Shown: positions 11,080 to 44,356 of the stretch, piece after piece | How the letters are laid out: each line of letters opens with the position of its first letter | Numbering within the stretch: the first letter of the stretch is position 1 | Assembly (NCBI GenBank): GCA_027493955.1 | Contig: JAOSJT010000001.1 | Location: 4,138,552 to 4,202,551 of the forward strand | Origin: Bacteroidia bacterium | GTDB lineage: Bacteria; Bacteroidota; Ignavibacteria; SZUA-365 | Length of the DNA stretch: 64,000 nt | Direction: 5' to 3' | Position numbers and translations under genes: made by a program | Notes under the pieces: model-generated | What the model saw: the letters and a program-made list of their open reading frames with translations, nothing else | Told to the model about the DNA's origin: nothing | The model's database searches: none

Positions 11080-11328
11080 TATTGACGTGATGAGCCACGG
11101 GCGCTGTCTCCGTGTGCCCACGCCGCTGAAAATACCTGAGGGGGTCCGATACGTCGGGCCCCCTCTGTCATTGTGCACATATCGGTTGCCGCACTGTCCC
11201 GGCCATACTCTCCTTCGAACAGGACGCACTGATCGCACCGCGTCGGAGCGGCGGGTACCGCGAAGCCGACAGGGTGTTTACTGCTCCCCGCGTCGTCGTC
11301 GTCGTGCCAGCCTGCAGGGTGATATGTC

Positions 11329-11503: not shown

Positions 11504-11538
11504 GAAATTCCGAGATGCATGCGCTCCGCTCTCCGCGC

Positions 11539-12384
11539 TCAAAACGAGTACACGAAGCTCACGGCGGGTCGGCCGTCAGCGATGCCGACGCCGAATGAAT
11601 CCAGAAAGGTGGGCGCGCCATTGTGAATGGCGGCATAGGTGAGATGGGAAATGAGTACACCGACGGCCGCACCAGTCATGACGTCACCGAGGTAATGTTT
11701 GTTGTCGCGTATGCGTGAATAGCCGACATAGCTGGCCCAACCGTAGGTGGATGCTGCCGCGGCAACTCGCAGGGCGTCACGCAAGAGAGGCCTCTCCCCA
11801 AGTGACTCCGACGCCATGATCGCATCATCCAATTCCATCTGCAGCCAGGAACAGGTCGCGAAGGCGACCGAGGTGTGACCACTGAAAAAACTCTTATCAT
11901 CACTCCCGTCAGGACGCATCCGATGTACGAGTGACTTCACCGTCTGTGTGGCGACCTGCGTGTACATCACACTGCGGTAGAGGCCGAAGGCGTGACGCAT
12001 TTCTTCCTCCGCGTCACCCTCTTCGCTCAGCAGCTCGATTGCGAGAATCTGAATCGTGCGCGCGCCGAGAATGGCGTGCGGCAATGCGAACGGATCCAGA
12101 CTGCCGAAGGACTCGGAGCCGCGCACGCCGAATTCTGTTGCAACTTCGCGTTCCAAACCGGTCGCGTGTATCAGGACGGGTTTACCAGCGGATTGAAGCG
12201 CCTCGTAACGGTTCACGAAATAAAAAAAGAACACCGGTGCGTCATACCAGGCGAATACGTCCCCCGCCGCATTCATCGAATGGGAGAGGAATCGGTTGAC
12301 GCGGTTCTCGTCACGATATTGTGCATGGGATATTGCTGGACCCAGAAGCCAGATCAGCAGGAGGGTGTGGAGTGTCGTCTTCAT
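11539..12384 (-). CDS. PAP2-superfamily phosphatase (secreted)
   Basis: Signal peptide MKTTLHTLLLIWLLGPAISHAQ. PAP2 motifs KSFFSGHTS (motif 2) and SRIRDNKHYLGDV (motif 3). Confidence 0.75.
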   Translation of the reverse strand: MKTTLHTLLLIWLLGPAISHAQYRDENRVNRFLSHSMNAAGDVFAWYDAPVFFFYFVNRYEALQSAGKPVLIHATGLEREVATEFGVRGSESFGSLDPFALPHAILGARTIQILAIELLSEEGDAEEEMRHAFGLYRSVMYTQVATQTVKSLVHRMRPDGSDDKSFFSGHTSVAFATCSWLQMELDDAIMASESLGERPLLRDALRVAAAASTYGWASYVGYSRIRDNKHYLGDVMTGAAVGVLISHLTYAAIHNGAPTFLDSFGVGIADGRPAVSFVYSF

Positions 12385-12402
12385 CGGCGAATCGTCAGCT
12401 GT

Positions 12403-13533
12403 TCATCGTGTCGTGAGTGTGTCTATGCTTCGCAGGAAAAAGTCTCGCCGCTCTATAAGATGCCGCCGGAGTGCGGCGGATTCGGCTTGCAGCGAAAAGC
12501 CCGCCAGGCCGAGCTTGGGATCGAGCGCCCACGCCGCGGCGATGGCCGCCTGGTACACCTCGAGCTGCGGGAAAAGTTGCCCCGGCACAATGACGGAGGC
12601 CAGCATATTCTTCGCCTCTCGCTTGTATATCGCGACGCAACTGTCGTTACGCAGTAAGGCTCGAATGATGTCGTTGTCTCCCGTCAGCCCCACATCTGCG
12701 TCCTCCGCCAGCAACTTGTCGAAATCCCACGGTATGATCTGATAGGGCGAAATGGGAGTGGGTTTGTAGAAGAGCATGTTGTTCGCGAAGCCATCTATAT
12801 GATTTAGTATGGACGCCGCGGCATGATAGCGCAGATAATTCGTAATGTCCAGATGACGGCCGACGACCTCGGGTATGCGGTCCGGCGGAGCGGTATCGAG
12901 AGCTTCGATCATTTCGCCGAGGGAATTCAGATTTCCGGATTCCGGAATGTCGAGAGAAAAATATTTGTCGAGATGCATGTTTTCCGAGAAGCTGAAGCGC
13001 GCACCGAAGCTCGCCTTGATCAGTTCATACACCATCATACCACGTTTGCGAAAAAATTCTTCTTCCACGCGCTCCACTTGCAGCAGCAGTCCTTTGTCCG
13101 TTCCGTTGATGCGCAGAAACACATGCGCGGTATTGAATGACGGAAAGCCGAGCCCTTCGAATATCATAGTCGCGAGCTTGCTTCGCAGCATGGTACGGTC
13201 GAACACCTGTGCGCTGAGATTGCAGGTGTTCATGCCATTGATCTGCTGCCCCGCATCGAGCTGCAGCTTGTACGACCAGCGCGCGTGGTAGCGTGAACCG
13301 GCGCCCTGCGGCTCGAAAGTGCCGCTGTACGATGTCTCGCCAACGAAAATGCGGGCCGGGGCCTTCTCGTTGCTCCACCGGTTCGAAAGCAGTGAACTGT
13401 AATACTCCTGTGGGATCCACACGTCGAGAACCGCAACCTCCCCCGTGTCGGGGAGATACGTGGAGTTGTCTGCGGTTTCACAAGCGCAAAACGTGAATAT
13501 GGAAAGGAGCGCTATGGATGCAAGTGCTTTCAA
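12403..13533 (-). CDS. CotH-family (spore coat protein H-like atypical kinase) secreted/lipoprotein
   Basis: Signal/lipobox-like N-terminus MKALASIALLSIFTFCAC. Length and conserved blocks (..GMNTCNLSAQVFDRTMLRSKLA.., ..NMLFYKPTPISPYQIIPWDFDKLL..) match the CotH Pfam pattern, including the WD(F/L)D block. 4-nt overlap with the upstream porin gene. Confidence 0.6.
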   Translation of the reverse strand: MKALASIALLSIFTFCACETADNSTYLPDTGEVAVLDVWIPQEYYSSLLSNRWSNEKAPARIFVGETSYSGTFEPQGAGSRYHARWSYKLQLDAGQQINGMNTCNLSAQVFDRTMLRSKLATMIFEGLGFPSFNTAHVFLRINGTDKGLLLQVERVEEEFFRKRGMMVYELIKASFGARFSFSENMHLDKYFSLDIPESGNLNSLGEMIEALDTAPPDRIPEVVGRHLDITNYLRYHAAASILNHIDGFANNMLFYKPTPISPYQIIPWDFDKLLAEDADVGLTGDNDIIRALLRNDSCVAIYKREAKNMLASVIVPGQLFPQLEVYQAAIAAAWALDPKLGLAGFSLQAESAALRRHLIERRDFFLRSIDTLTTR

Positions 13534-14537
13534 TAACGGAAAAAGGTCTCGATTGTTACGCTGGAACCCTCGGTGGAATAGGTGTCTGATCTGCCGTCCC
13601 GCGTTAGCAGCGCATCGAGCGAGAGGCGCAAACGGACGTCATCGTCTACAAACACATTCGCACCCGTCATTATTTCCAAGCGATGCGTTCCCATTTCCTC
13701 GAAGTCGGGAACAAACCAGGCGAGCATGAGATAAGGCTCAAGTACTTTCAGGAATGTACCGCCAAGATCGAAGCGCATTGCTGTCATGGACTTCAGTCCC
13801 GCCGTGTAGACGCGATCCTCACGCGCGAGCAGTCTCCGGCGTATGCCTTCCTCCGGATCCTGGAGAAGAACTGCTTCAAGGCCGCTCTCGAAGAGTGAAT
13901 CCTTGTACCCCGCATCGGCGGAGACGCCGAAGGTGGTAATTGCATTCTCGCGTCCCCGCTGCAATAGGGCGCCTCCGAGCGACGCCGTATATCCGGCGGA
14001 TGAATGCGCTGTGCCGCGCAGATAGGCGCTCGTCACATACGATTGATTCCGGAACACACCGGCGGCATAGGAAAAGGGAAATTCCGGATTTTTCTCTTTG
14101 TAATTGTAATACACCATCAGGCCGACGTTTCTGCCATCGTACCCCAGATCGGAAACCACCCGGTGCATGTAACTGTCGTTTACGGGAATGTACTCGTCCC
14201 GATCGCTGAGTCCTTCGAGGCTGAACGGCTTCTTGATGTTTCCGATCTTGATGCGCGCCTTGTCCATGTGCTTGAATGTGACGGTCGCCTCGCGCAGGAC
14301 TGCGGTCTTACTTTCTGAATGCCCGCGGAAATCCAGCTGTCCCTCTATCTTTTTGGAAAGCTCGATATCGGCCTGCAGCTTCCCCTCGTAATAAAATTCC
14401 TGATTGAATCCTGCGACGGGATTGCGGTCGAAAAAAGCGGCTCCCGTCGCTCCGAATCCGGAAAATGAAACTTTCTGCGCCTGGCTGTGACTCGTAAAGA
14501 ATGAGAGAAGCAGCAGGAGGAAGATATGTTTTTTCAT
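13530..14537 (-). CDS. outer-membrane beta-barrel porin-like protein
   Basis: Signal peptide MKKHIFLLLLLSFFTSHSQAQ, alternating amphipathic beta-strand pattern, C-terminal aromatic ending ...TIETFFRY. First gene of the operon with the CotH and PAP2 genes. Confidence 0.5.
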   Translation of the reverse strand: MKKHIFLLLLLSFFTSHSQAQKVSFSGFGATGAAFFDRNPVAGFNQEFYYEGKLQADIELSKKIEGQLDFRGHSESKTAVLREATVTFKHMDKARIKIGNIKKPFSLEGLSDRDEYIPVNDSYMHRVVSDLGYDGRNVGLMVYYNYKEKNPEFPFSYAAGVFRNQSYVTSAYLRGTAHSSAGYTASLGGALLQRGRENAITTFGVSADAGYKDSLFESGLEAVLLQDPEEGIRRRLLAREDRVYTAGLKSMTAMRFDLGGTFLKVLEPYLMLAWFVPDFEEMGTHRLEIMTGANVFVDDDVRLRLSLDALLTRDGRSDTYSTEGSSVTIETFFRY

Positions 14538-14720
14538 GAACCTGTTTGCAGTGCGTGTTGCTCTCCACGGCTGCGGCCTGCGTCTCAGGTGTCAGCAACG
14601 ACGTGGATGTCGGGGACAGGTGCTGTGTAGCGCGAAGGGAAAACCGCCGGACAACAAAACGGATATGCCCACATTCAGTAAATGTATCGAACCGGATCGG
14701 CCTGGGCAAGGCAGAAGGGA

Positions 14721-14759
14721 ATGTACGATCGACGAGTGACGAAGAGACGCATCGTACAT
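14721..14759 (-). terminator. candidate hairpin downstream of the GH31 gene, followed by a CGTCAAT heptamer array
   Basis: Inverted repeat atgtacgat-N21-atcgtacat at 14721-14759, 30-70 nt past the minus-strand stop at 14790. Followed (14762-14790) by cgtcaatcgtaaatcgtcactcgtcaat. No U-tract. Confidence 0.25.
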
Positions 14760-14789
14760 CCTACTTCGTCAATCGTAAATCGTCACTCG

Positions 14790-17267
14790 TCAATACCCTA
14801 TCGTCACGGTGCTCACGCCAGGAGCGAACGGTACAGTGATCTCGAAGCGACGGTGGGCGGCATCAACCCGTGCATCGGGTGGAACGGTGTTGGCGTCGGT
14901 GTCGAAAATGATGCGGTCGGCGGTCGCGACGCGGCGCGGCGAAGCGTCGGAACCGAAAAGCCGTAAACGTATCGCCTTGATATTCCGCGTTCGCACGCTT
15001 TCGGCGGCGTCAATGGTCAACCGCCAACCCCGCTCTTCCGCACCGAGGGAAAAACGCAGTACTTCGAAATCGCCCCGCTCATAACCATACCCCTCGCCGC
15101 TGTCAAGATACATCGTACCGCTGCCGCCGTCTTGTGGAACGATGTCCAGCACGAGTGTGTCGAGCTGTTTTTCACCGGTAAACTGCGGCGCATTTCTTCG
15201 CGGAATGATGGCTCCCGCTTTGTAGAACAACGGCAAACGACTCACGGGCGCATCGATGATCACGCGTTGACGGCCCTCGTAACTCTGGCCGGTCCAGGGA
15301 TCCAGCCACCGGCCCTCCGGCAGGTACACCTCCTGAAACCGCTGTCCCTCCTGTACCACCGGAGCGACGAGTATGTGATCACCGAACATCCATGTGTGTT
15401 GCCAGCGGCTGTCATATACCGCGGGATCGTTCTGATAGTCGTGCAGCAGCGGCCGCATCATCGGTGTGCCGCTTGTCGAGGCCTCGTGAAAAGCGCTGTA
15501 GATGTAAGGCAGGAACTCATAGCGCAGCGAAATGAAACGCCGGGCCAGCTCCTCCGTTTCCTCGCCGAAGGACCAGGGCTCCTGGTCGCGGGTGTTGATA
15601 TGCGTGTGCGATCGCATCAACGGAGTGAAAACTCCCGCCTGCAGCCACCGTACGTAAAGCTCCGGCGATGGCGAATCCATGAATCCGCCGATGTCCGTAC
15701 CGTTGAACGGCATACCGGACAAACTCAATCCGAGGCACATCCGTATACCCATGCGCAAATCGTCGAAACGTGCGGTATTGTCACCTGTCCAAATAGCCGC
15801 CCAGCGCTGTGTCCCCGCGAAGGCCGCGCGCGTGAGCACGAACGGTCTCTTATCTGGGTGACTTCGCCGCAGGCCATCAAAGGAGGCCTCCGCCATCAGA
15901 TGTCCGTACACATTGTGCATACGTTTGATCGTCGCAGGAGCGCCGTCGTTGTCGAACTGTACGAGATACGGAAATTCCCGGCCCCAGACTGCCGGCTCGT
16001 TCATGTCGTTCCAGAAGCCGTCCACGCCGATGTCCATCATTCGCGCGTATGCGTCTCCCCACCAGCGGCGGGTGTCCGCCCGCGAGAAGTCGGGGAAGTG
16101 ACACCAGCCAGGCCAGACCTGCCCGCTGTACAGCGTCCCGTCCGGGTATTTCAGGAAATGATCGCGGGCGATTCCCTGCTCGTACACGTCATAGCCGCGC
16201 TCGATCTTGATTCCGGGATCGATGATGGGCACGACTTTGAATCCCATCGCTTCCAGGTCGCTCAGCAACATGTGTGGATTCGGAAAGGCGGCGCTGTCCC
16301 ACGTGAATACCTTGTAGTTGTCCATATAACGGATGTCGAGATACAGCACATCGGCGGGAATGCCGCGCTGACGGAAATTTTTCGCAAGATCGCGGACCTC
16401 ATGCTCCGGATAATAACTCCAGCGACATTGCTGAAAACCGAGCGCCCACAGAGGCGGGAGGGGCATGCGTCCCGTGAGACCAGTGTACCGTCGCACAACG
16501 TCCCTCACGGCCGGACCGAATATGAAGTAATAATCCATTTCACCATCCTCGGCGCCGAAGGAATACACGCGGTCGCTGGCGGCTCCCATATTGAAAACAC
16601 TGCGGAAGCTGTTGTCGAAATAGATGCCATAGGCCCCTGCATCGCGCACACCAATGAAAAACGGGATCGAAGCGTACAGGGGATCGCGGTCGTTTCCATA
16701 ACCGGGGACGTCGGAGTTCCACATCACCCACTGACTGCCGCGCTTATTGACATCGCCGGTTTTTTCCCCCAGCCCATAAAAGCGCTCGTCCTGATGCAGG
16801 GTTTTCCAGACGTGAATTTCCTTGCCGTCCCAGGCGTGTCCGAATGCGCGGTCGTCGGAGGCGATCTCGCGCCCCTCGCCGTCGCGGAACACCAGCCGCA
16901 GTGGACGCTTGAGAATGTCTACTCTTCCGCCTGGCATGACCAACACCAGAGCGCTGTCCGTATCGTCGAGGTTCCAGTTCACAGCCGGAATTGCTTCGTG
17001 TCGTACGGCATGGGAGGGGTCGTTCAGCAAGGTGCCGTCGCGGCCTACCTGTATGCGCAGAACGGCCTCTCCGACGATGCTGAGACGCAGGACGTTGTTC
17101 TCCGCCCGAATACTGACACCGGCTGCGTCGCGTTCGTGGGAGACGTAGTCGCCGAGAGAGGTGTACTGATCCGCGTTGGCGGGGAGGGTCATGCGCACGA
17201 GCAGCAGAAGCCAAGGAATGCAGGCATGCCAACGTGCGGCGCGTAATGCGGATACAATGTGTTGCAT
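14790..17267 (-). CDS. glycoside hydrolase family 31 alpha-glucosidase/alpha-xylosidase
   Basis: GH31 catalytic region ...GVDGFWNDMNEP... and ...WTGDNTARFDDL... Signal peptide if started at M 17267 (MQHIVSALRAARWHACIPWLLLLVRMTLPANA). The 12 codons upstream (to 17303) are AT-rich and probably promoter sequence. Confidence 0.85.
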   Translation of the reverse strand: MQHIVSALRAARWHACIPWLLLLVRMTLPANADQYTSLGDYVSHERDAAGVSIRAENNVLRLSIVGEAVLRIQVGRDGTLLNDPSHAVRHEAIPAVNWNLDDTDSALVLVMPGGRVDILKRPLRLVFRDGEGREIASDDRAFGHAWDGKEIHVWKTLHQDERFYGLGEKTGDVNKRGSQWVMWNSDVPGYGNDRDPLYASIPFFIGVRDAGAYGIYFDNSFRSVFNMGAASDRVYSFGAEDGEMDYYFIFGPAVRDVVRRYTGLTGRMPLPPLWALGFQQCRWSYYPEHEVRDLAKNFRQRGIPADVLYLDIRYMDNYKVFTWDSAAFPNPHMLLSDLEAMGFKVVPIIDPGIKIERGYDVYEQGIARDHFLKYPDGTLYSGQVWPGWCHFPDFSRADTRRWWGDAYARMMDIGVDGFWNDMNEPAVWGREFPYLVQFDNDGAPATIKRMHNVYGHLMAEASFDGLRRSHPDKRPFVLTRAAFAGTQRWAAIWTGDNTARFDDLRMGIRMCLGLSLSGMPFNGTDIGGFMDSPSPELYVRWLQAGVFTPLMRSHTHINTRDQEPWSFGEETEELARRFISLRYEFLPYIYSAFHEASTSGTPMMRPLLHDYQNDPAVYDSRWQHTWMFGDHILVAPVVQEGQRFQEVYLPEGRWLDPWTGQSYEGRQRVIIDAPVSRLPLFYKAGAIIPRRNAPQFTGEKQLDTLVLDIVPQDGGSGTMYLDSGEGYGYERGDFEVLRFSLGAEERGWRLTIDAAESVRTRNIKAIRLRLFGSDASPRRVATADRIIFDTDANTVPPDARVDAAHRRFEITVPFAPGVSTVTIGY

Positions 17268-28726: not shown

Positions 28727-31189
28727 TCAGCTCACCCTCACCACCACCATCGTCATGTCGTCGTGCTGCTCGGCTTTGCCGGCGAAGCGGCGGGTTTCGC
28801 GGTAGAGGCCGTCGAGGATTTGCGCGGCGCTGTCGCCGGCGTGACGCTGCAGGGTGACGGCCAGTCGCTCCTCGCCGAACTCCTCGCGCTTCGTGGTCAT
28901 CGCCTCGGGATAACCGTCTGTGTACAGCACGAATATGTCTCCCGGATGTATGGGCAGCGTCACTTCCTCGATCGTCTGCTCGAATTTCTCACCGCCCTCG
29001 AAACCCAGCGCCATACCGCGCGACTGTATCACATCCACATGGTGATCGGAATCCATGCGCATCACCGGCGTGTGTCCCGCGCGCGCGATGGTGACGCTGT
29101 GCGTCTTCAGATCGAACACGGCGTAAATCATGCTGATGAAATTGCCGCGCTCCACGTTCTCGTAAAACAGGCGGTTCATTTCCACGAGCACGCGCGAGGG
29201 CGAGGTGGAAAAACGTCCCAGCGCTTTGAGAAATCCTTTGGTCAGCGTCATGTAAAACGCGGCCTGCGTGCCCTTGCCGGATACGTCTCCTATGGCGATG
29301 CCGATTTTATCCGGTCCCAGGTCGATGAAGTCGTAGTAATCCCCGCCCACCTCCATCGCCGGCGCACAGCGCGAAGCGATATCCAGGCCGGGGAAATGCG
29401 GATCGTGCTTCGGCAAAAAGCCCATCTGCACATCCCGCGCAATCTCCAGCTCGCGCGACAAACGCTGCCGCTCCGAAATATGCCGCTGGAAGCGGGGCGC
29501 GATCTTTTCGAAATCGCTCACCGTATCGCGTGTGACGAGGGCCAGCACGGCGAACAGCAGCATCGCCAGACCCACAGCCAGCAACAGCATTCCCTCGGAT
29601 TGATACGCGGTGTTCCAGGGCAGAAGCAGCAAACCACCTTTATGGACAATCAGACCCGCACTCAGTCCGCTGATGCCGGCCATGACATCCGCGGATACAA
29701 ACAGCAGTATCACAACGAGCGCAGGAAGCAGAGTAAGCGCTATTCCGCTCCAGAGAGGTTGCAGAGCGAGCGGATTCGGCAGAGCAAGCACCAATGCGCC
29801 CATCGGGAGCAGCAACCAAGGGGTGCGTAGTCGTTGACGGACCAGGGACACAACGAACATCACCGCGAAAGCGAAAGCAAACACACCGCTGTTCAATGAA
29901 TCGCCGAGCACAAAAAGCGCCGGCATACCGGAACTGAACATGTCGAAGGCATTATCCGATTTGTGCACGATACCAATGCCGCCGTCAGGAGCGAACAACC
30001 CGAGCGCGGTCACGCCAATACCCGTCATGAGTAATCCGCCCGACAGACCGCGTAACAGTGCATGCCCGATACGCGAATGAAGGACGTGCCCGCGCGTAAG
30101 CAGATCCACAGTGATGAATTTCTCTTTCCACGTTTCCCGCCCCACCGACTCTCCCACAGCCCAGACGACGAACATTGCGCCGCCGACGAGCAACGGAGCG
30201 AGCAGGAGTGGGAACAGGAGTTCCGGCTCCCAAACCGCCTCCGCGCGGAGCTGGAGGTAAAACCACGTGCCGAACAGCAGCGCCGTGACACCGCTGATAA
30301 GAAGGGCCGTTCGAAAACCGATCTCATACGCCCGCAGTCTCCGGATACCGGTCACAATCAGCAGTATCGAGAGGCCAACGTAAAAGAGCACCTGCAGTAT
30401 CTCTCCCATGTATCCGCCCTCACTCCCGGCCGCTGATGACGTTGCTCTGGGTTCAAGGGAGAAGCGGGTCACGGTACCACCGGCAAGATCCACGCGTACG
30501 TCGATGCTGTCACCTGTCCGGGCATCAAATGCGGCCCAGGAAGCCGAATAGTTTCTTCGCGCAGGTGATTCGTTCCGCGTCCAGCGAACACTGTCGCCGG
30601 GTGCGAAACCGCGCTGTGTGCGTGCAGCGGCATTCAGCCCGAGCGGACCGCGGTACATCGAGTCTGCGTGCGTCCGTATCAGACGCTCCACTGTACCGAG
30701 CGCCTCGTGCGGCGAGAGAGACGGAAGCGAAACCGAATCGGGTACGGGAACGAGCAAGTAGAGCAGTGATCCGTCAGTGTGGAATCGCATCTGAATGTCG
30801 CCCTTGAGAATGCGGTCCACGATGCGTTCTTCGGAATTCGAAATGCGCAGGGAGGTAGCTCCGTCGGGGTCGGCGCGGAATATGCGGACGCGCCAGTGAT
30901 ATGCCGAAGAGGAGAGTGCAGCCGGGACCGCGTCGGTGGGCGGCCCCTTGCGCGCGCCCATCTCCTCAGAAGAGCTCTGACGTAGCCTCGGAAGAATGGT
31001 GAAGCGCACGGAATCGAGATGCAGATCCGCAAGCACAGCTTGCGAGCGGAAGCGGATACTGTCGCTGTTCACAGTGAGACGCATCATGGACCAGGGGTGG
31101 GCGGTGGGATAGAAGTACAGCAGAAGAATCAATCCCGCGACTCCGCCGGCGAGCCAGAGCCAGGTGATAGCGCGTTCGCTCTGTAACAT
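28727..31189 (-). CDS. membrane sensor serine phosphatase: N-terminal TM plus ~250-aa extracytoplasmic domain, multi-pass (7TM-receptor-like) region, C-terminal PP2C/SpoIIE domain
   Basis: The C-terminal ~230 aa (..AMEVGGDYYDFIDL...GDVSGKGTQAAFYM...ARAGHTP...YTDGYPEA...HDDMTMVVVRV) is a SpoIIE/RsbU-type PP2C. The upstream half has ~7 hydrophobic helices. Start assigned to M 31189 (MLQSERAITWLWLAGGVAGLILLLYF). The track ORF extends to 31453 through the divergent promoter region. Confidence 0.8.
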   Translation of the reverse strand: MLQSERAITWLWLAGGVAGLILLLYFYPTAHPWSMMRLTVNSDSIRFRSQAVLADLHLDSVRFTILPRLRQSSSEEMGARKGPPTDAVPAALSSSAYHWRVRIFRADPDGATSLRISNSEERIVDRILKGDIQMRFHTDGSLLYLLVPVPDSVSLPSLSPHEALGTVERLIRTHADSMYRGPLGLNAAARTQRGFAPGDSVRWTRNESPARRNYSASWAAFDARTGDSIDVRVDLAGGTVTRFSLEPRATSSAAGSEGGYMGEILQVLFYVGLSILLIVTGIRRLRAYEIGFRTALLISGVTALLFGTWFYLQLRAEAVWEPELLFPLLLAPLLVGGAMFVVWAVGESVGRETWKEKFITVDLLTRGHVLHSRIGHALLRGLSGGLLMTGIGVTALGLFAPDGGIGIVHKSDNAFDMFSSGMPALFVLGDSLNSGVFAFAFAVMFVVSLVRQRLRTPWLLLPMGALVLALPNPLALQPLWSGIALTLLPALVVILLFVSADVMAGISGLSAGLIVHKGGLLLLPWNTAYQSEGMLLLAVGLAMLLFAVLALVTRDTVSDFEKIAPRFQRHISERQRLSRELEIARDVQMGFLPKHDPHFPGLDIASRCAPAMEVGGDYYDFIDLGPDKIGIAIGDVSGKGTQAAFYMTLTKGFLKALGRFSTSPSRVLVEMNRLFYENVERGNFISMIYAVFDLKTHSVTIARAGHTPVMRMDSDHHVDVIQSRGMALGFEGGEKFEQTIEEVTLPIHPGDIFVLYTDGYPEAMTTKREEFGEERLAVTLQRHAGDSAAQILDGLYRETRRFAGKAEQHDDMTMVVVRVS

Positions 31190-31235
31190 GCAGTCTCCGA
31201 AATGCTGGAAAAACAGGATCAGTCCACGGCTGCGA

Positions 31236-31250
31236 GATGCAACAGTTGCA
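31236..31250. promoter_or_regulatory. palindrome ATGCAAC-A-GTTGCAT in the 262-bp divergent control region between the two PP2C sensor genes
   Basis: atgcaacagttgcat at 31236-31250. Half-site GATGCAAC recurs at 31396-31403. Confidence 0.2.
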
Positions 31251-31451
31251 TGGGGCGTCCGTATACGGATTGTTCGGCATAAGGTTGCTTTCACGAACAG
31301 AATCACGACAGGGCGGCCTGAGAACGAATTCCGCGAATACTGTGTGATTCCTTCGTGTAAAATCGCGATATTATGCGACTGAAAACAACCCGAGCGATGC
31401 AACGCGTCCCGTGAGTTCTCTCTTCTGTACTTCTCACTTTCAGGCGCCGCC

Positions 31452-34244
31452 ATGTCCCGACTGATGGATTCTCTTTCACCGCGTGCGATACGAATTCTCT
31501 ACTCCGTTTTTGCCATTCTCGTCCTGGCTATCGCCGTGTACAATCTCCTGCACATCCTTGTGTGGCGCGTGCCGAGCAATGATCAATGTGAGTGGAGAAT
31601 GGTGTTTTCCGATACAGCGGCCGTGCATCTGGATTGGGATGTGCGCAAGCCGCATGCGTCAATGCTCGGTTTCGAACGGGGAGACCTGGTTCTCGCTGTC
31701 AATGGCATCAGTGCCGACAGTGCGAGCGATGCGATAAAGAACATACTGCGTGCGGCCGGCGGAGATACGGTTCGGGTACTGATTGACAGGGACCGGCGGC
31801 AGCGGACCATCCCGCTCGTGCGCGATCCCGGGTGGAAAGAACTTCCGTTCAAGTTGTACGACAGGCCTGTCGAAACCCTCGTCATAACGAACATCGTTCC
31901 CGGAGGGGTGACGGAGCAGGCCGGCGCACAGGAAGGCGATCTGCTGCTGCGTATCGACAGCGTCAGTACCCGCTATCAACTCGGCGCTCAGAATCTTCTC
32001 AACAGACATCATGCGGGTAGCATCGCCCGCTTTACCATTGAGAGAGATGGAGAGCTGCGCACACTGAACGTTCGTGTGCTCAAGGCCTTTAATTACATGT
32101 ACTTCGGCCTGTTTCTCCTTGGCCTGGGTTTCTTCGTCGTCGGGTACGTGGTCGTGATGGCCAAACCGGAGGGTCGTATCCAACGACGTTTCGGGCGCTA
32201 TGGTATCCTCGCCTTATTCCTGTTCGGAATGCAGAGCGTCGCAGTGGGTCCGGTACTGGATTCGTATTTCAAAGTGTACAGCATGCTATCGCTGGCGCTC
32301 CTTTCGCGTATTATCGCACCTCCGGCCTTCGTGATGTTTTTCTTCCACTTCCCGTATCACAAACGGCGTGTGGATCGCTGGTGGATCATTACCGGTCTTT
32401 ACGGACTCTGCGCTCTCGCCGCTTTCGTGCTCTTTAATTGGTCCTTCCATATTCTCGAATGGAGGGCGGCGCTCTGGATGATCCGTCTCGCCGATCTTTT
32501 GCCCATGTCGCTGCTCTTCGTCGGGCTCCTGGTCTTTGCGCACAGCTACTTTCATGTCGGGGACCGACTGCAACGCAAGCAACTGCGTCCCATTTTGTAC
32601 TCCACCCTCATCGGTGTCGCGGTCTTCATCTACATGACAGTGGTGAGCACGACCTATCCTCTTGCGATTTACCTTCAGCCCTATCTTCTGCTCCCGGCAC
32701 TATTGTTCATCGGCATTCCTCCTGCCTTTGCCTATGCGATTTTCAAGAATCGCCTCATGGACGTGACCGTTATCGTCAAGCGCAGCATCATATATGCGCT
32801 GATTACCGCCACCATCGCGGCGATTTACCTCATGTTCGTGTTCGGTCTTGGGAGTGTGCTCGGGGTAATGCTGGGTGAAACGGACAACACTCTGCTCATA
32901 CTCGTCGCCTTCATCGTCATCGCGCTGGTCTTCGATCCGCTCAAACGAAGATTGCAGGAGTGGGTGGACCGTATATTCTATCAGGAACGCTACAATTACC
33001 AGAAAGCGTTGCTCGAGTTCAGCCGTGAACTCCCGCGGCAAATCAAGATGGAGGAAATTCTTTCTTCCATGGTGTCGCGTATTTCATCCACCATGCATGT
33101 CGAGCGCGTGGCCGTGGGGCTGTGCGATGATACGCATGGCTGTCATGTGCTGAGTAAAAATATTCCGGACCGCTGCTGTGAATTCGGACATGTGGATGGC
33201 GGGCTGTTGCAGGCGCTGAAGGACATGCGTATCCCTCTCTCCGTCGCGCTGGTCAACGAGGATCCGCGCATCGTGGATCCTGAGGACAGACAGCGCATTC
33301 GTGAGGCCGGTATCGTGTTGGTCGTGCCGATGTTTTTGCAGGATCGTCTCATCGGCGCCATCATGGTTGGTTCCAAGATGAGCGGCAAGGTCTACTCGCA
33401 GGAAGACATTGATCTGCTTTCCACCGTCGCGGGACAGGCCGCGATAGCCATCGAAAACGCCCGTCTGCACTCATCGGAACTGGAGAAACAGAAGATCACC
33501 GAACAATTGCAGATCGCACAGCGCATACAGAAAAGTCTGCTCCCGCGCAGCAGTCCCGAACTATCCCAACTCGACATCGCCGGCGTGTCGATTCCCGCGA
33601 TGACGGTCGGTGGTGATTATTATGACTACATACACCTGCCGGACGACCGCCTGCTCGTGGTCGTGGGCGATGTATCCGGGAAAGGCATATCCGCCGCGCT
33701 GTACATGTCCAAGGTGCAGGGTATTCTCCGTTTTGCCGCGTCGGTGTGCGCCACACCGCGCGACATGCTCATCAGCACCAACCGCCATTTGTATGAAGGT
33801 ATGGAGCGGAACACGTTCTTTACCGCGGTACTCGCCTTATTCGACTTCCGGGAGGGGACCGTGACCATGTGCCGCGCCGGACACACGCAACCGCTGGTCG
33901 GTCTGAACGGCGATTTGCACTATATGCACATGGAAGGCATGGGGCTCGGTCTCGAGCCGGGTGCCGTGTTCGACACCTCCCTGCAGGAGGTCACCTGGCC
34001 AATGAAACCCGGTGGGCTGGTACTGCTGTATTCGGACGGACTGACCGAGGCCATGGACGGGGGCATGAATCTATTCGGCGAAGACCGTCTTTTCAGCCTT
34101 TTCCGCAGTGTGCGTCATGAAGACGCCGAAGACATACAGCGGCGCATCTTAGGGGAGGTGGCCTTGCATCGCGGTGCCGCCGAGCAAAACGATGACATCA
34201 CCATGGTGGTCATTCGGATTAAGCAGAAAAAGGTATCTGAATAA
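31452..34244 (+). CDS. membrane sensor serine phosphatase: TM anchor, two PDZ domains, multi-pass TM region, GAF domain, PP2C/SpoIIE domain
   Basis: PDZ-like blocks (GDLVLAVNGIS..., GDLLLRIDSVS...), ~8 hydrophobic helices (res ~230-480), a GAF-like region (..VAVGLCDD...IVLVVPMFLQDRLIGAIMVGSK..), and a C-terminal PP2C paralogous to the previous gene (VGGDYYDYIHL...GDVSGKGISAALYM...RAGHTQ...YSDGLTEA...NDDITMVVIRI). Confidence 0.8.
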   Translation: MSRLMDSLSPRAIRILYSVFAILVLAIAVYNLLHILVWRVPSNDQCEWRMVFSDTAAVHLDWDVRKPHASMLGFERGDLVLAVNGISADSASDAIKNILRAAGGDTVRVLIDRDRRQRTIPLVRDPGWKELPFKLYDRPVETLVITNIVPGGVTEQAGAQEGDLLLRIDSVSTRYQLGAQNLLNRHHAGSIARFTIERDGELRTLNVRVLKAFNYMYFGLFLLGLGFFVVGYVVVMAKPEGRIQRRFGRYGILALFLFGMQSVAVGPVLDSYFKVYSMLSLALLSRIIAPPAFVMFFFHFPYHKRRVDRWWIITGLYGLCALAAFVLFNWSFHILEWRAALWMIRLADLLPMSLLFVGLLVFAHSYFHVGDRLQRKQLRPILYSTLIGVAVFIYMTVVSTTYPLAIYLQPYLLLPALLFIGIPPAFAYAIFKNRLMDVTVIVKRSIIYALITATIAAIYLMFVFGLGSVLGVMLGETDNTLLILVAFIVIALVFDPLKRRLQEWVDRIFYQERYNYQKALLEFSRELPRQIKMEEILSSMVSRISSTMHVERVAVGLCDDTHGCHVLSKNIPDRCCEFGHVDGGLLQALKDMRIPLSVALVNEDPRIVDPEDRQRIREAGIVLVVPMFLQDRLIGAIMVGSKMSGKVYSQEDIDLLSTVAGQAAIAIENARLHSSELEKQKITEQLQIAQRIQKSLLPRSSPELSQLDIAGVSIPAMTVGGDYYDYIHLPDDRLLVVVGDVSGKGISAALYMSKVQGILRFAASVCATPRDMLISTNRHLYEGMERNTFFTAVLALFDFREGTVTMCRAGHTQPLVGLNGDLHYMHMEGMGLGLEPGAVFDTSLQEVTWPMKPGGLVLLYSDGLTEAMDGGMNLFGEDRLFSLFRSVRHEDAEDIQRRILGEVALHRGAAEQNDDITMVVIRIKQKKVSE

Positions 34245-34326: not shown

Positions 34327-36123
34327 ATGACACGTCTCATTTTTTCCACTGCGATCGTACTCCCCCTGCTGCTCACAACGTGCACTACAGACCATCGTAG
34401 TGCCGCCGACCGTCACTTCGAGGAGGTTGCCGCGCACTTCATCGAAGCCTGGCTCGTTTCCCATCCCGAACAGGCGACAGCGCTGGGGGACCGCCGTTTC
34501 GACGACCGACTGAATGATTACTCCCACAATGGGATACAGAACGACATCGCGCTGTATCGTGCATATCTCGACACTTTGCGGGAAATACGCGTCGAGGATC
34601 TTTCGGCAGCACACATGATTGATTACGACATTATGCTGCAAAGTGTCACAGGAAGTCTTTTTACACTCGAAGAATTGCGCGAGTGGGAATGGAACCCCTT
34701 GTCATACAATCCCGGGGAGGCTATCTACGGCCTGATCGCGCGCAATGGAACGACGTTCAGCGCAAGAATGAAGGCCTTGGCCGCGAGACTGCGCGGTGTA
34801 CACGCTCTGCTCGACGCGGCCCGCGCGAATTTGACGAATCCTCCTGCAATTCACACCGAGACCGCGATCATTCAAAACGAAGGCGTCCTTGCACTGCTGA
34901 CCGGCATCGTGCAGGCTTGTATCGACAGCGTGGACAGTCCGCTGCGCGCCGAGCTCTCCACAGCTCGCGATTCCGCATTATTGGCACTCAGGGACTATGG
35001 TGCCTGGTTGTCGGAGGACTTGCTCCCGCGCTCACGACGTGACTTCCGACTTGGCGCGGCGCTGTACGCCAGGAAGTTTCAGTATAAACTCGATACGGAC
35101 ATGAAACCGGAAGATCTGTTGCAGGAGGCCTGGCTCGATCTCGCCCGTACCACAGAGGACATGTATCAGGTCGCACTTCCATTGTATGCGGAGCTGTTCG
35201 ACAGTCGTGACGCCGCGAAACTCGAGCGCGACGCACTCATACGCGCGGTACTCGCCAAGCTCAGCGATCAGCATTCCAACGACGATCGCATCGTTGAGCA
35301 GGCGCGGCGTGACCTCGTGGCGGCCACGGATTTCGTAAAGGCACAGGGCTTGGTGACCGTGCCCGCCGAGCCATTGGAGATCATCGTGATGCCGGAATTT
35401 CAGCGTGGTGTCGCGGTGGCTTACTGCGACAGTCCCGGAGCACTGGAGAAAAACGGAAAAACGTTTTTCGCCATCGCTCCCACTCCGGCATATTGGACCG
35501 ATGCACGCAAGGAGTCGTTCTACCGCGAATATAATGACCACATGCTGCGGAATCTTGTTGTGCACGAAGCGATGCCGGGGCACTATTTGCAGATAGCCGC
35601 ATCGCATAAGGCAGAGGCCCCGACACTCCTGCGTGCGATCACACCCAGCGGTGTGTTTGCCGAAGGGTGGGCGACCTACAGCGAGCAGCTCATGGCTGAC
35701 GCCGGTTTCGGCGGAGCGGCGATGAAGATGCAGCAACTCAAGATGCGTCTCCGTCTGTTGATCAACACCATTCTCGACCAGAGTGTCCACACGATGGGCA
35801 TGAGCGAACGCGATGGCATGGCGCTGATGATGGAGCAGGGATTTCAGGAGGAGAGCGAGGCGGCGGGTAAATGGCGCAGGGCCTGTCTCACCTCGGTGCA
35901 GCTCAGTTCCTACTATTACGGCAACCGGAGAATCAACGACATACGCGCACGCTATCAACAGCAGGCGGGTGAGCGCTTCGACCTGCGGGCGTTTCACGAT
36001 ACCCTGCTTTCCTTCGGCACCATTTCGCCCAAATATCTGCCCGTGTTGCTCAAGCTGCCCTCCGATGCCGCATCGGCACCGTCGGCAGCGGAACGGGAAA
36101 ATTTGGAACGCCGACCAGGTTGA
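34327..36123 (+). CDS. DUF885-family lipoprotein (zinc-metallopeptidase-like HEAMPGH motif)
   Basis: Signal/lipobox MTRLIFSTAIVLPLLLTTC; length ~600 aa; conserved HEAMPGHYLQ block typical of DUF885. Confidence 0.7.
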   Translation: MTRLIFSTAIVLPLLLTTCTTDHRSAADRHFEEVAAHFIEAWLVSHPEQATALGDRRFDDRLNDYSHNGIQNDIALYRAYLDTLREIRVEDLSAAHMIDYDIMLQSVTGSLFTLEELREWEWNPLSYNPGEAIYGLIARNGTTFSARMKALAARLRGVHALLDAARANLTNPPAIHTETAIIQNEGVLALLTGIVQACIDSVDSPLRAELSTARDSALLALRDYGAWLSEDLLPRSRRDFRLGAALYARKFQYKLDTDMKPEDLLQEAWLDLARTTEDMYQVALPLYAELFDSRDAAKLERDALIRAVLAKLSDQHSNDDRIVEQARRDLVAATDFVKAQGLVTVPAEPLEIIVMPEFQRGVAVAYCDSPGALEKNGKTFFAIAPTPAYWTDARKESFYREYNDHMLRNLVVHEAMPGHYLQIAASHKAEAPTLLRAITPSGVFAEGWATYSEQLMADAGFGGAAMKMQQLKMRLRLLINTILDQSVHTMGMSERDGMALMMEQGFQEESEAAGKWRRACLTSVQLSSYYYGNRRINDIRARYQQQAGERFDLRAFHDTLLSFGTISPKYLPVLLKLPSDAASAPSAAERENLERRPG

Positions 36124-37148
36124 TGGAACCTTCGCACGATACCGACGCGCTAGCAGCCCTCGGAACGGAGTTCACCGGCACCGCTCCGAACGCGGTGATC
36201 GCGCTCAAGGGTGACGCTTCCGACCGCAGGATTTACCGGCTTGTGTATTCTTCGCAAAGTCTGATCGGCGTCGTCGGACCCAATGTGGCGGAGAACCGCG
36301 CCTTCATCGGCTTCGCGCGCTCCTTCCGCGCCGCAGGATTGCATGTGCCGGAAGTGTATCGCGTATCGGAACACGAGCAGGCGTATCTGCAGGAGGATCT
36401 CGGAGACGCGCTTTTCAGCGACTGGCAACGGACACATACGACAGCCGAGGGTGTGGATGGCGAGGCCATGGCCCTGTACGGCATCGTATTGCAAGAGCTG
36501 CTGCGTTTTCAGCACGACGCCGCCTCCGCAGTGGATTATTCACTGTGTTATCAGACCCGCGAGTTCTCGACCGAAGCGATGCTTTTCGACATCCGTTATT
36601 TCCGCGACAACTTCCTTGCACGTCTCGCAGAAGTTCCGTGGGACGAGCGGCGTTTCATGGCCGATTGCAACCTGCTGGTCGAAATGCTGTGCCGGGAGCC
36701 GCGCAACGGTTTCCTCTACCGAGATTTTCAATCCCGCAATGTCATGCTGCGCGATGGCACACCCTGGTTCATAGATTTCCAATCCGGCCGAAAGGGCGCT
36801 CCGCAGTATGACCTCGCGTCCATGCTGTACGACTCAAAGGGCGGGCTTACAACCGCGCAGCGCGAGACGCTCATCGATCAGTACATTGCCGGCCTGAGGT
36901 CGCGGTATGATGTCGATGAAGTCGTTTTCCGGCGCCGTTTCGCCGGTTTCGCCGTGTTGCGGCTCATGCAGGCACTCGGCGCTTTCGCCAACCTCGGTCT
37001 GAACAAAGGCAAACCAACGTACCTCGAGTTCATTCCGTCACGTTTGAGCACAATGCGCGAGGTCGTTTCCTCAGCGGTAATTCTCGACGAAGTCCCGTAT
37101 CTGAGGGGTTTGTTGCTGCGGTGCGGTGATGGTGGTGATTCAGAGTGA
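36123..37148 (+). CDS. aminoglycoside-phosphotransferase-fold sugar kinase, AmgK-like (anomeric MurNAc/GlcNAc kinase); LicA-type alternative not excluded
   Basis: APH/ChoK-family catalytic loop YRDFQSRNVML (Brenner motif HxDxxxxN with Y) and IDFQSG metal-binding loop; 341 aa; a nucleotidyltransferase gene follows in the same direction. Starts TGATG-overlapped with the DUF885 stop. Confidence 0.6.
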   Translation: MEPSHDTDALAALGTEFTGTAPNAVIALKGDASDRRIYRLVYSSQSLIGVVGPNVAENRAFIGFARSFRAAGLHVPEVYRVSEHEQAYLQEDLGDALFSDWQRTHTTAEGVDGEAMALYGIVLQELLRFQHDAASAVDYSLCYQTREFSTEAMLFDIRYFRDNFLARLAEVPWDERRFMADCNLLVEMLCREPRNGFLYRDFQSRNVMLRDGTPWFIDFQSGRKGAPQYDLASMLYDSKGGLTTAQRETLIDQYIAGLRSRYDVDEVVFRRRFAGFAVLRLMQALGAFANLGLNKGKPTYLEFIPSRLSTMREVVSSAVILDEVPYLRGLLLRCGDGGDSE

Positions 37149-37149
37149 T

Positions 37150-37705
37150 AAGCGAAGTAAAGAGTGAAGAGTAAAGAGTAAAGAGTGAAGAGCGTCAACC
37201 AAGGAGCTAGCGCTGTAACTGCAGAATATACGAAAACGAACCCCTTTACTCTTTACTCTTTACCCTTCACGAATCCTATGAGTTTATAGATTCACATCCC
37301 ATCATGAGCAGACGTTCTGAAGTTACAGAAATATATGCGTAACAGAACCCCTTTACCCTTTACTCTTTACCCTTCACGAATCCAAGGAGTTTATCGATTC
37401 GCATTCCATCCTGAGCAGACGTTTTGAAGTTACAGAAATATATGCGTAACAGAACCCCTTTACCCTTTACTCTTTACCCTTCACGAATCCTATGAGTTTA
37501 TAGATTCACATCCCATCATGGGCAGACGTTCTGAAGTTACAGAAATATATGCGTAACAGAACCCCTTTACCCTTTACTCTTTACCCTTCACGAATCCTAT
37601 GAGTTTATAGATTCACATCCCATCATGAGCAGACGTTCTGAAGTTACAGAAATATATGCGTAACAGAACCCCTCTACCCTTTACTCTTTACCCTTTACGA
37701 ATTCC
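37150..37705 (+). repeat. 107-bp tandem repeat array (~4.5 copies) preceded by an inverted GTAAAGA/GTGAAGA heptamer block; lower GC than surroundings
   Basis: cagacgttctgaagttacag recurs at 37309, 37416, 37523 and 37630 (period 107). Each unit contains ..cctttaccctttactctttacccttcac.. and atgagcagacgttctgaagttacagaaatatatgcgtaa. The final copy merges into the start of ORF 37706. Confidence 0.85.
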
Positions 37706-38104
37706 ATGAGTCTGTTGATTCACATCGCATCATTCGGATACAGAAAATCCGGTATCCCCGCAGACGAGTCCGGCCATGGCGGCGGGTATGTGTTCGACTG
37801 CCGCGGTTTGCCGAATCCCGGACGCGAAGAGCGCTTTCAGGCGCTGACGGGATTGGACGCGGAGGTGGAACTGTTTCTTGCGGCTGAGGAGGCGGTAGAG
37901 GATTTTCTTGCGCACTGCCTTGCGCTCTGTCTGAGTACGGCGGAGGCGCATCGGCGCAGGGATTTTACGCAGCTGTCCGTAAGCTTCGGCTGCACGGGAG
38001 GTCAGCATCGCTCGGTGTACTGCGCCGAACGGACGGCACAGGCCCTGCGCGATGCGGGGTATGATGTCGTCGTGACGCATAACGAACGGGAGCATTGGCC
38101 ATGA
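37706..38104 (+). CDS. RapZ (YhbJ/YvcJ) C-terminal-domain-like protein lacking the P-loop NTPase half
   Basis: 132 aa; ...VSFGCTGGQHRSVYCAERTAQALRDAGYDV matches, as recalled, the GCTGG(Q/K)HRSV block of the RapZ family C-terminal domain; no Walker A. Stop overlaps the start of the next gene (ATGA). Confidence 0.45.
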   Translation: MSLLIHIASFGYRKSGIPADESGHGGGYVFDCRGLPNPGREERFQALTGLDAEVELFLAAEEAVEDFLAHCLALCLSTAEAHRRRDFTQLSVSFGCTGGQHRSVYCAERTAQALRDAGYDVVVTHNEREHWP

Positions 38105-38808
38105 AGGGCATGATACTTGCCGCGGGGTTCGGGACGCGACTCGGTGCGCTGACGAGCGATATTCCCAAGCCGCTGCTCCCGGTCGCCGGGAAACCCATGA
38201 TAGCGTCAGCGGTCGAAGCGCTCAAACGAGCCGGTTGTACCGATATCATCGTCAACGCGCATCATCATGCCGGTATGATCGTCGCGCACTTCAGGGAAAC
38301 GGATTACGGAGTCCGGATACGCGTGAGCGTCGAGAGCGATATTCTCGGTACCGGAGGAGGGATTGTGCATGCGCGTCCGTTGCTCGGAGATGCTCCCTTT
38401 TTTCTTTTACATAACGCCGACATCGTCACCGGCGCGATTCTTTCCGCGCTGGTGGAGGAGCACCGTCGGCACGCGCCGCTTGCGACGCTGCTTGTGCACC
38501 GCAGGGAAACGAAGCGTGCCGTGCTGTTCGATGAAAGTATGCGCTTTCTCGGCAAGGAAGTGTGGCGCGAAGAAGGCATGGAGTTTCCGGACGATGCACA
38601 GCGCTTCAATTACTGCGGTGTGCAGGTGATATCGCGGGAGTTTTTCGATCTCGCTTTTCCGGATGGTTTTTCAGATCTGTTCGATTGCCACCGCATCGCA
38701 CTCTCGTCCGGGCGGATGATACGGGGGATGGAACATAACGCGTATTGGACGGATCTTGGAACAGAGGAACGGATTCGCGAACATGAGCAACATGAGCATA
38801 TCCGATAG
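38101..38808 (+). CDS. sugar-1-phosphate nucleotidyltransferase, MurU-like (MurNAc-alpha-1-P uridylyltransferase)
   Basis: [34 protein letters not shown] N-terminal NTP-transferase motif, ~235 aa, downstream of the AmgK-like kinase. ATG at 38101 (the track start at 38095 is TTG). Confidence 0.6.
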   Translation: [235 protein letters not shown]

Positions 38809-43895: not shown

Positions 43896-44265
43896 ATCTT
43901 CTTCGTGACGGATTCCTGGGGATCTGCCTGTGAAACTCCAGAATCATGCGTGATAGTTCGTCGAGTTGTCCAACGAGCGGCATCATACGTTCCTGTGATG
44001 TAAGACCGATCTTTGGAATGGTCAGACACATGTTGGCTGTTTCAAAGGTTGATCGTCGTGCGATGTTCAGGAAATTGCGGAACTCATTGTTCGACAAGCT
44101 GCCGGAGCCTTCCGCGATGTTGTTTGTGATGGACAACGAGGCGGATCGAACCTGCTCAGCGAAACGATACATCCTTTGCTGATCGAGGAAATCAGCAAGG
44201 CGGAATGAACGCACAACCACATCCGTCCCCCGTTGCCAGATATCGAGATTCTGAAATCGAAACAT
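43894..44265 (-). CDS. four-helix-bundle protein (PF05635, '23S rRNA intervening sequence protein'/Avd-like family)
   Basis: 123 aa; ..FAEQVRSASLSITNNIAEGSGSLSNNEFRNFLNIARRSTFE.. matches the family signature (Q..RAa.SI..NIAEG ... iArGS..E). Local GC (~50%) is well below the window average. Confidence 0.7.
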
Positions 44266-44356
44266 GTCATACTCCCAAAGTGAGTGGAATGAAAAAAAAC
44301 ATCAATACCTGTGCGGTATTAACGAAATGCGTAAATCTTTCCTGGATACAAATAGA

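Follow-up and report, generated by a model that had tools for sequence, protein, structure and literature searches.

Two divergent multi-pass membrane phosphatases of the SpoIIE/PP2C type, with unrelated inputs and without linked partner-switching genes, in an Ignavibacteria genome

Two divergent phosphatase genes share only their output region

We analysed a 64,000-nucleotide stretch of the metagenome-assembled genome (MAG) of a Bacteroidia bacterium (GTDB lineage Bacteroidota; Ignavibacteria; SZUA-365), which comprises positions 4,138,552 to 4,202,551 of contig JAOSJT010000001.1 and is hereafter called the window, and focused on two large genes, A and B, that stand head to head in it. The analysis bore out the original prediction that each gene codes for a multi-pass membrane phosphatase of the SpoIIE/PP2C type and that the two have unrelated input modules. 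The pair, with its output domains, is laid out as follows (TM, transmembrane; aa, amino acids):

28727..31189, minus strand: gene A, an 820-aa membrane PP2C phosphatase (TM1, periplasmic domain, 9-TM block, linker helix, SpoIIE/PP2C domain)
31190..31451, unstranded: A-B spacer, a 262-bp divergent promoter/leader region common to A and B
31452..34244, plus strand: gene B, a 930-aa membrane PP2C phosphatase (TM1, PDZ, PDZ, nine TM helices, GAF, linker, SpoIIE/PP2C domain)
28733..29314, minus strand: A residues 626-819, SpoIIE/PP2C catalytic domain (Pfam, 1e-46)
33639..34220, plus strand: B residues 730-923, SpoIIE/PP2C catalytic domain (Pfam PF07228, 2e-44)
29417..29494, minus strand: A residues 566-591, long helix from the membrane block to the PP2C domain (ERQRLSRELEIARDVQ), a presumed coiled-coil signalling linker

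The two open reading frames (ORFs) diverge, spanning 28727..31453 on the minus strand and 31452..34244 on the plus strand. Gene A likely starts at the ATG at 31189 (MLQSERAITW...), which has GGAG 7-10 nt on its 5' side, is the start called for an identical 820-aa gene in public metagenome contigs, and is equivalent in position to the start of all eight full-length gene A orthologues. This start fixes the spacer at 31190-31451, or 262 bp, and the length of the spacer matches the predicted one exactly. Both proteins are already in public databases, from one MAG and with generic annotation only: NCBI names A 'PP2C family protein-serine/threonine phosphatase [Bacteroidia bacterium]' and B 'SpoIIE family protein phosphatase [Bacteroidia bacterium]'.

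BLASTP aligned A and B over a single stretch (A 573-820, B 678-924; 40% identity) that consists of the helix ahead of the PP2C domain and the domain itself, bearing out the claim that they are alike only in the C-terminal PP2C region; the motifs quoted for that claim, GGDYYD, GDVSGKG, AGHT, (T/S)DG..EA and DD.TMVV.R, are all there in both proteins. The PF07228 scores were 159.7 bits for A and 152.3 bits for B against a cut-off of 25, and the PP2C fold was found when membership of the SpoIIE/RsbU-type PPM phosphatases was tested. The catalytic metal-binding aspartates, whose loss had been named as a ground for rejecting the assignment, are intact on alignment: D617, D635, D758, D810 and D811 of A are invariant in 56 A-family members, and the metal-binding motifs of B all align with those of A. 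The linker helix, which is helix H317-341 in a model of the TM region, is nearly invariant across the A family and aligns with B 678-700. RsbU is activated via a coiled-coil linker, and this mechanism has been put forward as a common one among PPM phosphatases that carry GAF, HAMP or PAS inputs (PMC12143880).

The input module of A is widespread and unnamed

The region of A ahead of the linker consists of two parts:

30422..31099, minus strand: A residues 31-256, extracytoplasmic domain, putative PepSY/YpeB-C-like (DUF4901-like)
29534..30421, minus strand: A residues 257-552, 9-helix membrane block, probable CPBP/Abi-like fold

SpoIIE was the sole Pfam match of full-length A, and residues 1-620, searched as 1-256 and 257-620, matched no Pfam family at E≤10; we describe the periplasmic domain as putatively PepSY-like. 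The membrane block was modelled separately from a 111-sequence alignment (predicted local distance difference test score 94.7, predicted template modelling score 0.91), and the model has nine TM helices, then a long helix into the PP2C domain. This region had been called 7TM-receptor-like. The 7TMR-DISM families (PF07695/PF07696) gave no Pfam match to A at E≤10, which leaves the label unsupported, and the model has nine helices, not seven, in a fold that points to a CPBP/Abi-like bundle.

By fold comparison the block model has a probable likeness to SpdC and Rce1. Rce1 held the top Foldseek rank without being significant (E 0.35, probability 0.6), and 1 of 56 A relatives matched the Pfam Rce1-like family (9.4e-6). 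At the sequence level, no match of A to PF02517 (CPBP/Abi/Rce1) was found at E≤10, and comparisons of the block with CPBP proteins were negative in a profile search of all PDB sequences, in hhalign against the Rce1-like protein of the window and in phmmer. The conserved cytoplasmic motifs of the block are RRLRAYEIGFR and WAVGESvGRETWKEKF (R351 invariant), and the most conserved membrane motif of the family, WAV-G-E-S-x-G-R-E-x-W-x-E-K-F, resembles the CPBP motif EExxxR minus its first Glu, which is Gly, Ser or Ala instead, so that x-E-x-x-x-R is left (E/D347, invariant R351). Alignments of 56 and of 111 sequences contained no invariant or nearly invariant His in the block, indicating that the His motifs of CPBP proteases are absent; A thus does not carry the catalytic set EExxxR, FxxxH and HxxxN/D.

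These observations bear on whether the block is an active CPBP/Rce1-type intramembrane protease, which would make A a bifunctional protease-phosphatase. The likeness to SpdC and Rce1, the single family member with a Pfam Rce1-like match (9e-6) and the retained E-x-x-x-R with its invariant Arg are what such an enzyme would show, whereas the replaced Glu, the lack of a conserved His and the negative profile searches against CPBP sequences speak against it, and we regard an active protease as highly improbable. From the fold-level likeness and the negative sequence-profile tests together, we term the block probably CPBP/Abi-like (SpdC/Rce1-like) and catalytically degenerate, and do not assign it to the CPBP family. 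Catalytically inactive Abi proteins have been described in signalling: SpdC binds WalK and other kinases via TM helices, and Abx1 binds CovS (PMC5854430). Unlike SpdC/LyrA and Abx1, which are separate proteins acting on kinases by TM contacts, the bundle of A is fused to a PP2C output and preceded by a putatively PepSY-like periplasmic domain, and the likeness is at fold level only. A literature search on CPBP-PP2C fusions found nothing relevant. The window also encodes a CPBP (Rce1-like) protein of its own.

In an exhaustive HMMER search with A residues 1-620, the cut-off of E≤1e-30 was passed by 125 representatives (50% clusters) and that of E≤1e-10 by 525; among its 3,353 matches, the weakest may owe their score solely to the linker and the PP2C edge, which the query contained. 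Nearly all of the 150 best relatives are 800-830 aa long and aligned over the whole membrane block. With one genome taken per species, the module was present in Ignavibacteria and Ignavibacteriales, unclassified 'Bacteroidota' MAGs, Calditrichia, KSB1, Gemmatimonadota and Chlorobi. These results indicate that A represents a widespread, unnamed architecture.

The input module of B is shared with histidine kinases

Three elements precede the linker of B:

31629..32081, plus strand: B residues ~60-210, two PDZ domains, predicted periplasmic (Pfam PDZ_2/PDZ_6 in two stretches, PDZ_Tricorn at 75-118)
32091..32942, plus strand: B residues 214-497, nine predicted TM helices (hydropathy, Arg/Lys-rich alternate loops)
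33048..33452, plus strand: B residues 533-667, GAF domain, cytoplasmic (Pfam GAF 1.5e-12, GAF_3, GAF_2)

Pfam scores above threshold were obtained for PDZ_2 (50.1 bits, two stretches), PDZ_6 (45.1 bits) and GAF (48.6 bits), with the PDZ stretches at about 60-125 and 141-210. The hydropathy profile shows a single N-terminal helix, TM1 (17-37), and then the block at 214-497, with the PDZ pair in between. Arg/Lys-rich loops (KPEGRIQRRFGR, HKRRVDR, DRLQRKQLR, KNRLMDVTVIVKR and DPLKRRLQ) alternate regularly, which by the positive-inside rule indicates nine helices in the block. Of the predicted description of B, the two PDZ domains and the GAF domain therefore stood, whereas the 8-helix membrane region gave way to one of nine. 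The same alternation suggests an N-in/C-in topology, which would place the PDZ pair in the periplasm and the GAF and PP2C domains in the cytoplasm. The membrane block matched no Pfam family even at E≤10.

The B family comprised 207 clusters at E≤1e-5 in a word-limited search and has two forms, of ~925 aa with two PDZ domains and of ~837 aa with one. The PDZ-TM-GAF module also occurs on PAS-HisKA-HATPase outputs in Acidobacteria (P0138-P0150), and B 143-687 is collinear with one such histidine kinase, P0141, membrane region included (27% identity, E 5e-45). This distribution fits the prediction made for PPM phosphatases, whose sensors have been seen as an 'exchangeable toolkit' (PMC12143880). 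B 418-680 resembles PrsK (TIGR02916; 5.8e-18), in keeping with a likeness to the PrsK-type (XrtA/PEP-CTERM) multi-TM and GAF histidine kinases. We rejected B as a PrsK kinase: the score is 64.8 bits against a cut-off of 300, the output is PP2C rather than HisKA/HATPase, and there is no PEP-CTERM/exosortase context. The best NCBIfam matches of the PDZ domains were DegP, DegS and RseP. Like the envelope-stress sensors DegS and RseP, B is a membrane signalling protein with PDZ domains, in its case predicted to be periplasmic, but it has no protease domain and would relay its signal to a phosphatase, not into a proteolytic cascade.

The A-B junction is a stable feature of one clade

Divergent A-B adjacency was observed in all 17 of the related loci in which both genes were visible, the paired loci being the window relatives L001, L002, L004, L006, L007 and L010-L020, with A orthologues down to ~40% identity in the membrane block. 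The outer flank of A varies, carrying an SSF symporter, YjbQ, complex I genes, CotH/PAP2, DUF7948 or argH, and the junction outlasts rearrangements of this flank in at least six genomes. Neither the more distant members of the A family (L021-L091) nor the relatives of B with 837 aa and one PDZ domain (L008, L009) are paired, and their contexts are unrelated, indicating that the pairing is a stable feature of one clade. Neither the input architecture of A nor the A-B pairing is described in Pfam, NCBIfam or the searchable literature.

The conserved order is compatible with functional coupling, of which it is no proof. The alternative is independence: each phosphatase would serve a pathway and substrate of its own, and the two would be adjacent through inherited synteny with no functional coupling. 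That relatives outside the clade stand alone agrees with such independence; the survival of the junction through the flank rearrangements counts against it, and we hold it to be possible though rather unlikely.

Partner-switching genes are absent nearby and linked in a few distant relatives

The claim that no partner-switching genes lie nearby held. Over ~60 sizeable ORFs of the window, Pfam identified no STAS, HATPase_c_2/RsbW, sigma-70 or anti-sigma domain, and phmmer and hmmsearch with SpoIIAA, RsbV, SpoIIAB and RsbW seeds and a derived STAS profile detected no STAS or RsbW in any stop-to-stop ORF of at least 50 aa. Adjacent canonical partner-switching genes in a longer context, which had been named as a potential refutation, were found in none of the flanks of about 15 related pairs. 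When 5.8 billion proteins were searched with a STAS profile, the outcome was uninformative rather than negative, none of the best 120 of 7,899 matches being from the source contig. The lack of local partners, presented at first as an oddity, is the rule in the family: almost none of 80 A-family loci has a linked STAS gene, and A-family phosphatases are typically 'orphans' without linked partners. Other bacteria, Chlamydia among them, are known to have their partner-switching genes dispersed. The literature search on partner switching in Ignavibacteria found nothing relevant.

Linkage was verified by Pfam in two relatives. The A-type gene of an Ignavibacteriales MAG (L042) has a STAS gene ~90 bp upstream, and in a Gemmatimonadota genome (L079) the order is A-type phosphatase, STAS, HATPase_c_2, HATPase_c_2 (RsbW-type) and GAF-SpoIIE phosphatase. 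An iterated 'RsbW' hidden Markov model drifted into ordinary histidine kinases, and its matches were discarded except for the Pfam-verified ones in L079. The L079 cluster occupies 9038-15126 on CP070758.1, with a HAMP-SpoIIE gene 7 kb upstream and no adjacent sigma factor, and is a compact multi-phosphatase partner-switching locus in another phylum. That A-type and GAF-type phosphatases again flank one STAS-RsbW module in so distant a phylum is a further point against the independence of A and B.

Every PF07228 enzyme characterised to date, as far as we know, dephosphorylates a STAS or STAS-like protein. PMC11418112 likewise gives such proteins as the substrates of the SpoIIE family. Taken with L079 and L042, these known substrates point to a phospho-STAS (anti-anti-sigma-like) protein encoded elsewhere in the genome as the most likely substrate of A and B.

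The spacer carries candidate operators

Within the 262-bp spacer, three elements were located:

31237..31251, unstranded: palindrome ATGCAACAGTTGCAT, perfect 7-1-7, 48-62 bp 5' of the A start codon
31259..31268, unstranded: palindrome CCGTATACGG, the best-conserved spacer element
31396..31403, plus strand: GATGCAAC half-site, 49-56 bp 5' of the B start codon, a direct repeat of 31236-31243

The first and the last of these are the palindrome and second half-site that had been reported from the sequence. ATGCAACAGTTGCAT occurs as a single exact copy in 64 kb, and the chance of a perfect palindrome of its size in 262 bp is roughly 0.02 by our arithmetic. An 80%-identical orthologue reads GTGCAACAGTTGCAC in its place, a paired change that preserves the symmetry; at 65% identity only one arm is conserved. 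CCGTATACGG too occurs only once in exact form in the window, and 4 of 5 orthologous spacers share its core CGTATACG unchanged. The half-site differs at one position in the 80% orthologue and shows no conservation at 65%. The block AAAATCGCGATATTA, ~80 bp 5' of B, is conserved as well and may contain the -10 element of B. The palindromes and half-site are reasonable operator candidates; no regulator gene is evident near the spacer. As a regulon motif ATGCAACAGTTGCAT was rejected, since allowing up to two mismatches gave 5 sites in the window against 2.7 expected, which is not significant, and a relaxed search for further CCGTATACGG sites in the window was not significant either. Scans of 28.4-38.2 kb for sigma-70-type promoters and intrinsic terminators gave fewer sites than shuffled controls and none in the spacer, and Rfam identified no RNA family in the window.

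In a 74%-identical orthologous locus (L004; GCA_029980345.1), an insertion sequence, an rve integrase with a helix-turn-helix, lies at 8434-9660 inside the A-B spacer and enlarges it to ~1.8 kb, with A and B remaining neighbours. Its presence without apparent harm, and the fast decay of the spacer motifs with divergence, are two further points in favour of A and B being independent.

A and B may be two inputs to one partner-switching module

The reading that we favour, and consider likely on balance, is that A and B are two sensor phosphatases acting on an unlinked phospho-STAS partner as two inputs to one module. Their 40%-identical catalytic domains and shared control region suggest such an arrangement, like that of RsbU and RsbP of Bacillus, which are two inputs into one partner-switching module. 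Beyond an intact PP2C domain on a membrane sensor, we infer the following steps. Signals sensed outside or within the membrane, different for the two proteins, would be read in A by the PepSY-like periplasmic domain seated on the catalytically degenerate CPBP/Abi-like bundle, and in B by the two periplasmic PDZ domains, the 9-helix bundle and the cytoplasmic GAF domain. The helix ahead of the PP2C domain (A 566-591; B about 678-700) would form a crossing coiled-coil, dimerise and switch on the phosphatase; by analogy, passage of the signal is probably through such linker-mediated dimerisation. The active phosphatase would dephosphorylate the STAS protein, freeing it to bind an RsbW-type partner, and the shared divergent control region would keep A and B together.

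Several points weigh against this reading. Genes for STAS, RsbW or sigma factors went undetected both in the window and, in about 15 related genomes, in the roughly 250 kb that surround the pair, and STAS linkage was observed in only 2-3 of about 80 A-family loci. The pairing is confined to one clade and so may be plain inherited synteny, and convergence of A and B on one substrate is argued by analogy with known systems.

A and B resemble RsbU, RsbP and SpoIIE of Bacillus, Rv1364c, Chlamydia RsbU and SiaA of P. aeruginosa in having PF07228 with intact metal-binding motifs and a sensor-linker-PP2C order; like SiaA, Chlamydia RsbU and SpoIIE they are membrane-anchored, and like Bacillus RsbU and RsbP they are two differently sensing phosphatases in one organism. 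They differ from the RsbU/RsbP/SpoIIE type in their inputs, which are different and much larger (10 TM helices each), in having no linked STAS, RsbW or sigma genes, and in their host, an uncultured member of the Fibrobacteres-Chlorobi-Bacteroidetes (FCB) group.

A bolder proposal is that A is an undescribed class of envelope receptor, in which an inactivated CPBP/Abi fold with a PepSY-like cap drives PP2C, and forms an obligate pair with B via a shared substrate or heterodimerisation, giving FCB-group bacteria without a linked rsb operon a two-input pathway for envelope/peptidoglycan status. It draws only on fold-level evidence and synteny, and we consider it unlikely.

RsbU/SpoIIE sensor phosphatases are a major, poorly charted signalling branch outside Firmicutes and Actinobacteria. 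The locus adds to it a large unnamed family, in Ignavibacteria, Calditrichia, Gemmatimonadota and relatives, in which a putatively PepSY-like and probably Abi/CPBP-like module sits on PP2C, as well as a PDZ-multiTM-GAF input swapped between phosphatase and histidine-kinase outputs. If the CPBP-like assignment is true, inactive Abi folds would act in signalling as a fused receptor too, and not just as accessory proteins such as SpdC and Abx1. A and B are of an ordinary kind of bacterial signalling protein, and the locus alone opens no long-standing question.

Neighbouring genes and substrates other than STAS

Downstream of B lies a syntenic block:

34327..38808, plus strand: DUF885 lipoprotein, AmgK-like APH kinase, RapZ_C-only protein and MurU-like nucleotidyltransferase

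The order B, DUF885, AmgK-like, (RapZ_C), MurU-like is kept in L004, L006, L007 and L010 (Pfam, NCBIfam). The best NCBIfam families of the kinase and the nucleotidyltransferase were sub-threshold (AmgK 60.6 bits against a cut-off of 500; MurU 140.6 against 250). The original prediction named the DUF885 protein and the AmgK-like kinase as candidate substrates, neither of which is credible. The DUF885 protein begins with a lipoprotein-type signal peptide (MTRLIFSTAIVLPLLLTTC), indicating that it is exported and beyond the reach of a cytoplasmic PP2C domain, and the kinase is an APH-fold protein closest to the sugar kinase AmgK and is followed by the MurU-like nucleotidyltransferase. The literature on DUF885 function yielded nothing relevant.

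More broadly, the substrates could be other than STAS: targets of Hanks-type or CotH-type kinases, or nearby envelope/peptidoglycan-recycling enzymes such as the AmgK-like kinase. STAS/RsbW genes were not found nearby, the block from B to the MurU-like gene is syntenic across the clade, and a CotH kinase gene lies in the window (12406-13638) and two genes from A in L007, all of which this alternative would accommodate. Its nearby candidates are weakened by the predicted export of DUF885 and by an APH-fold protein that resembles a sugar kinase, not a protein kinase or known phosphoprotein; the B-side synteny stops at the clade boundary; and both the STAS linkage in L079 and L042 and the known substrates of the SpoIIE sub-family, which are STAS or STAS-like proteins (PMC11418112), favour a STAS protein. 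We therefore judge non-STAS substrates quite improbable, and a phospho-STAS protein encoded elsewhere remains our preferred substrate.

On the A side, clustering of 1,252 ORFs from 91 A-family loci gave no neighbour in more than 20 loci, and the top neighbours were housekeeping genes (PAP2, KsgA, Sel1, aminotransferase, GT2, ACPS, HAD, DHQase and MerR). Upstream of distant A-family genes, PAP2 was the neighbour met most often (20 of 89 loci). The window (11542-13638) and L007 (1268-4168) each have a CotH kinase gene next to a PAP2 phosphatase gene, and in L007 one unannotated 347-aa gene separates this block from gene A.

The 132-aa protein encoded at 37706-38104, between the AmgK-like and MurU-like genes, is the RapZ C-terminal domain alone, without the P-loop half, an arrangement also kept in L004 and L007. 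It may be a sugar-phosphate-binding accessory of the N-acetylmuramic acid recycling pair, and we know of no earlier description of such a protein between these two genes. The gap between the AmgK-like and RapZ_C-only genes is occupied by a tandem array at 37238-37733 (and 37156-37192) of 107-bp units in 4.6 copies with 93% matches. The opening ~30 nt of the RapZ_C gene recur in degenerate form in each unit, the last copy entering the real start at 37706, and the (AGTAAAG)x5.3 ahead of the array corresponds, in reverse complement, to the CTTTAC-rich stretch within the unit. The array has no Rfam match, and because the corresponding gap in L004 and L007 is only 0-145 bp, it is specific to the source genome.

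Other features of the window

Elsewhere in the window, 2365-8883 encodes a protein of 2,173 aa whose N-terminal repeats are BNR/Sortilin-like and which also has many Ig-like domains of the HYDIN/ASH/Cep192 type; OmpA-family and beta-barrel genes follow it. Type IX secretion sorting domains occur on proteins of the window and, with the taxonomy of relatives, assign the organism to the FCB group, close to Ignavibacteria. The segment 60001-64000, just downstream of dnaG, has a GC content of ~0.50 compared with ~0.58 elsewhere, and its ORFs at 60836-61876, 62098-63015 and 63327-63779 have no Pfam match; it may be foreign or mobile DNA. A gene of the '23S rRNA-intervening sequence protein' family (four-helix bundle, PF05635) lies on the minus strand at 43897-44301, away from any rRNA.

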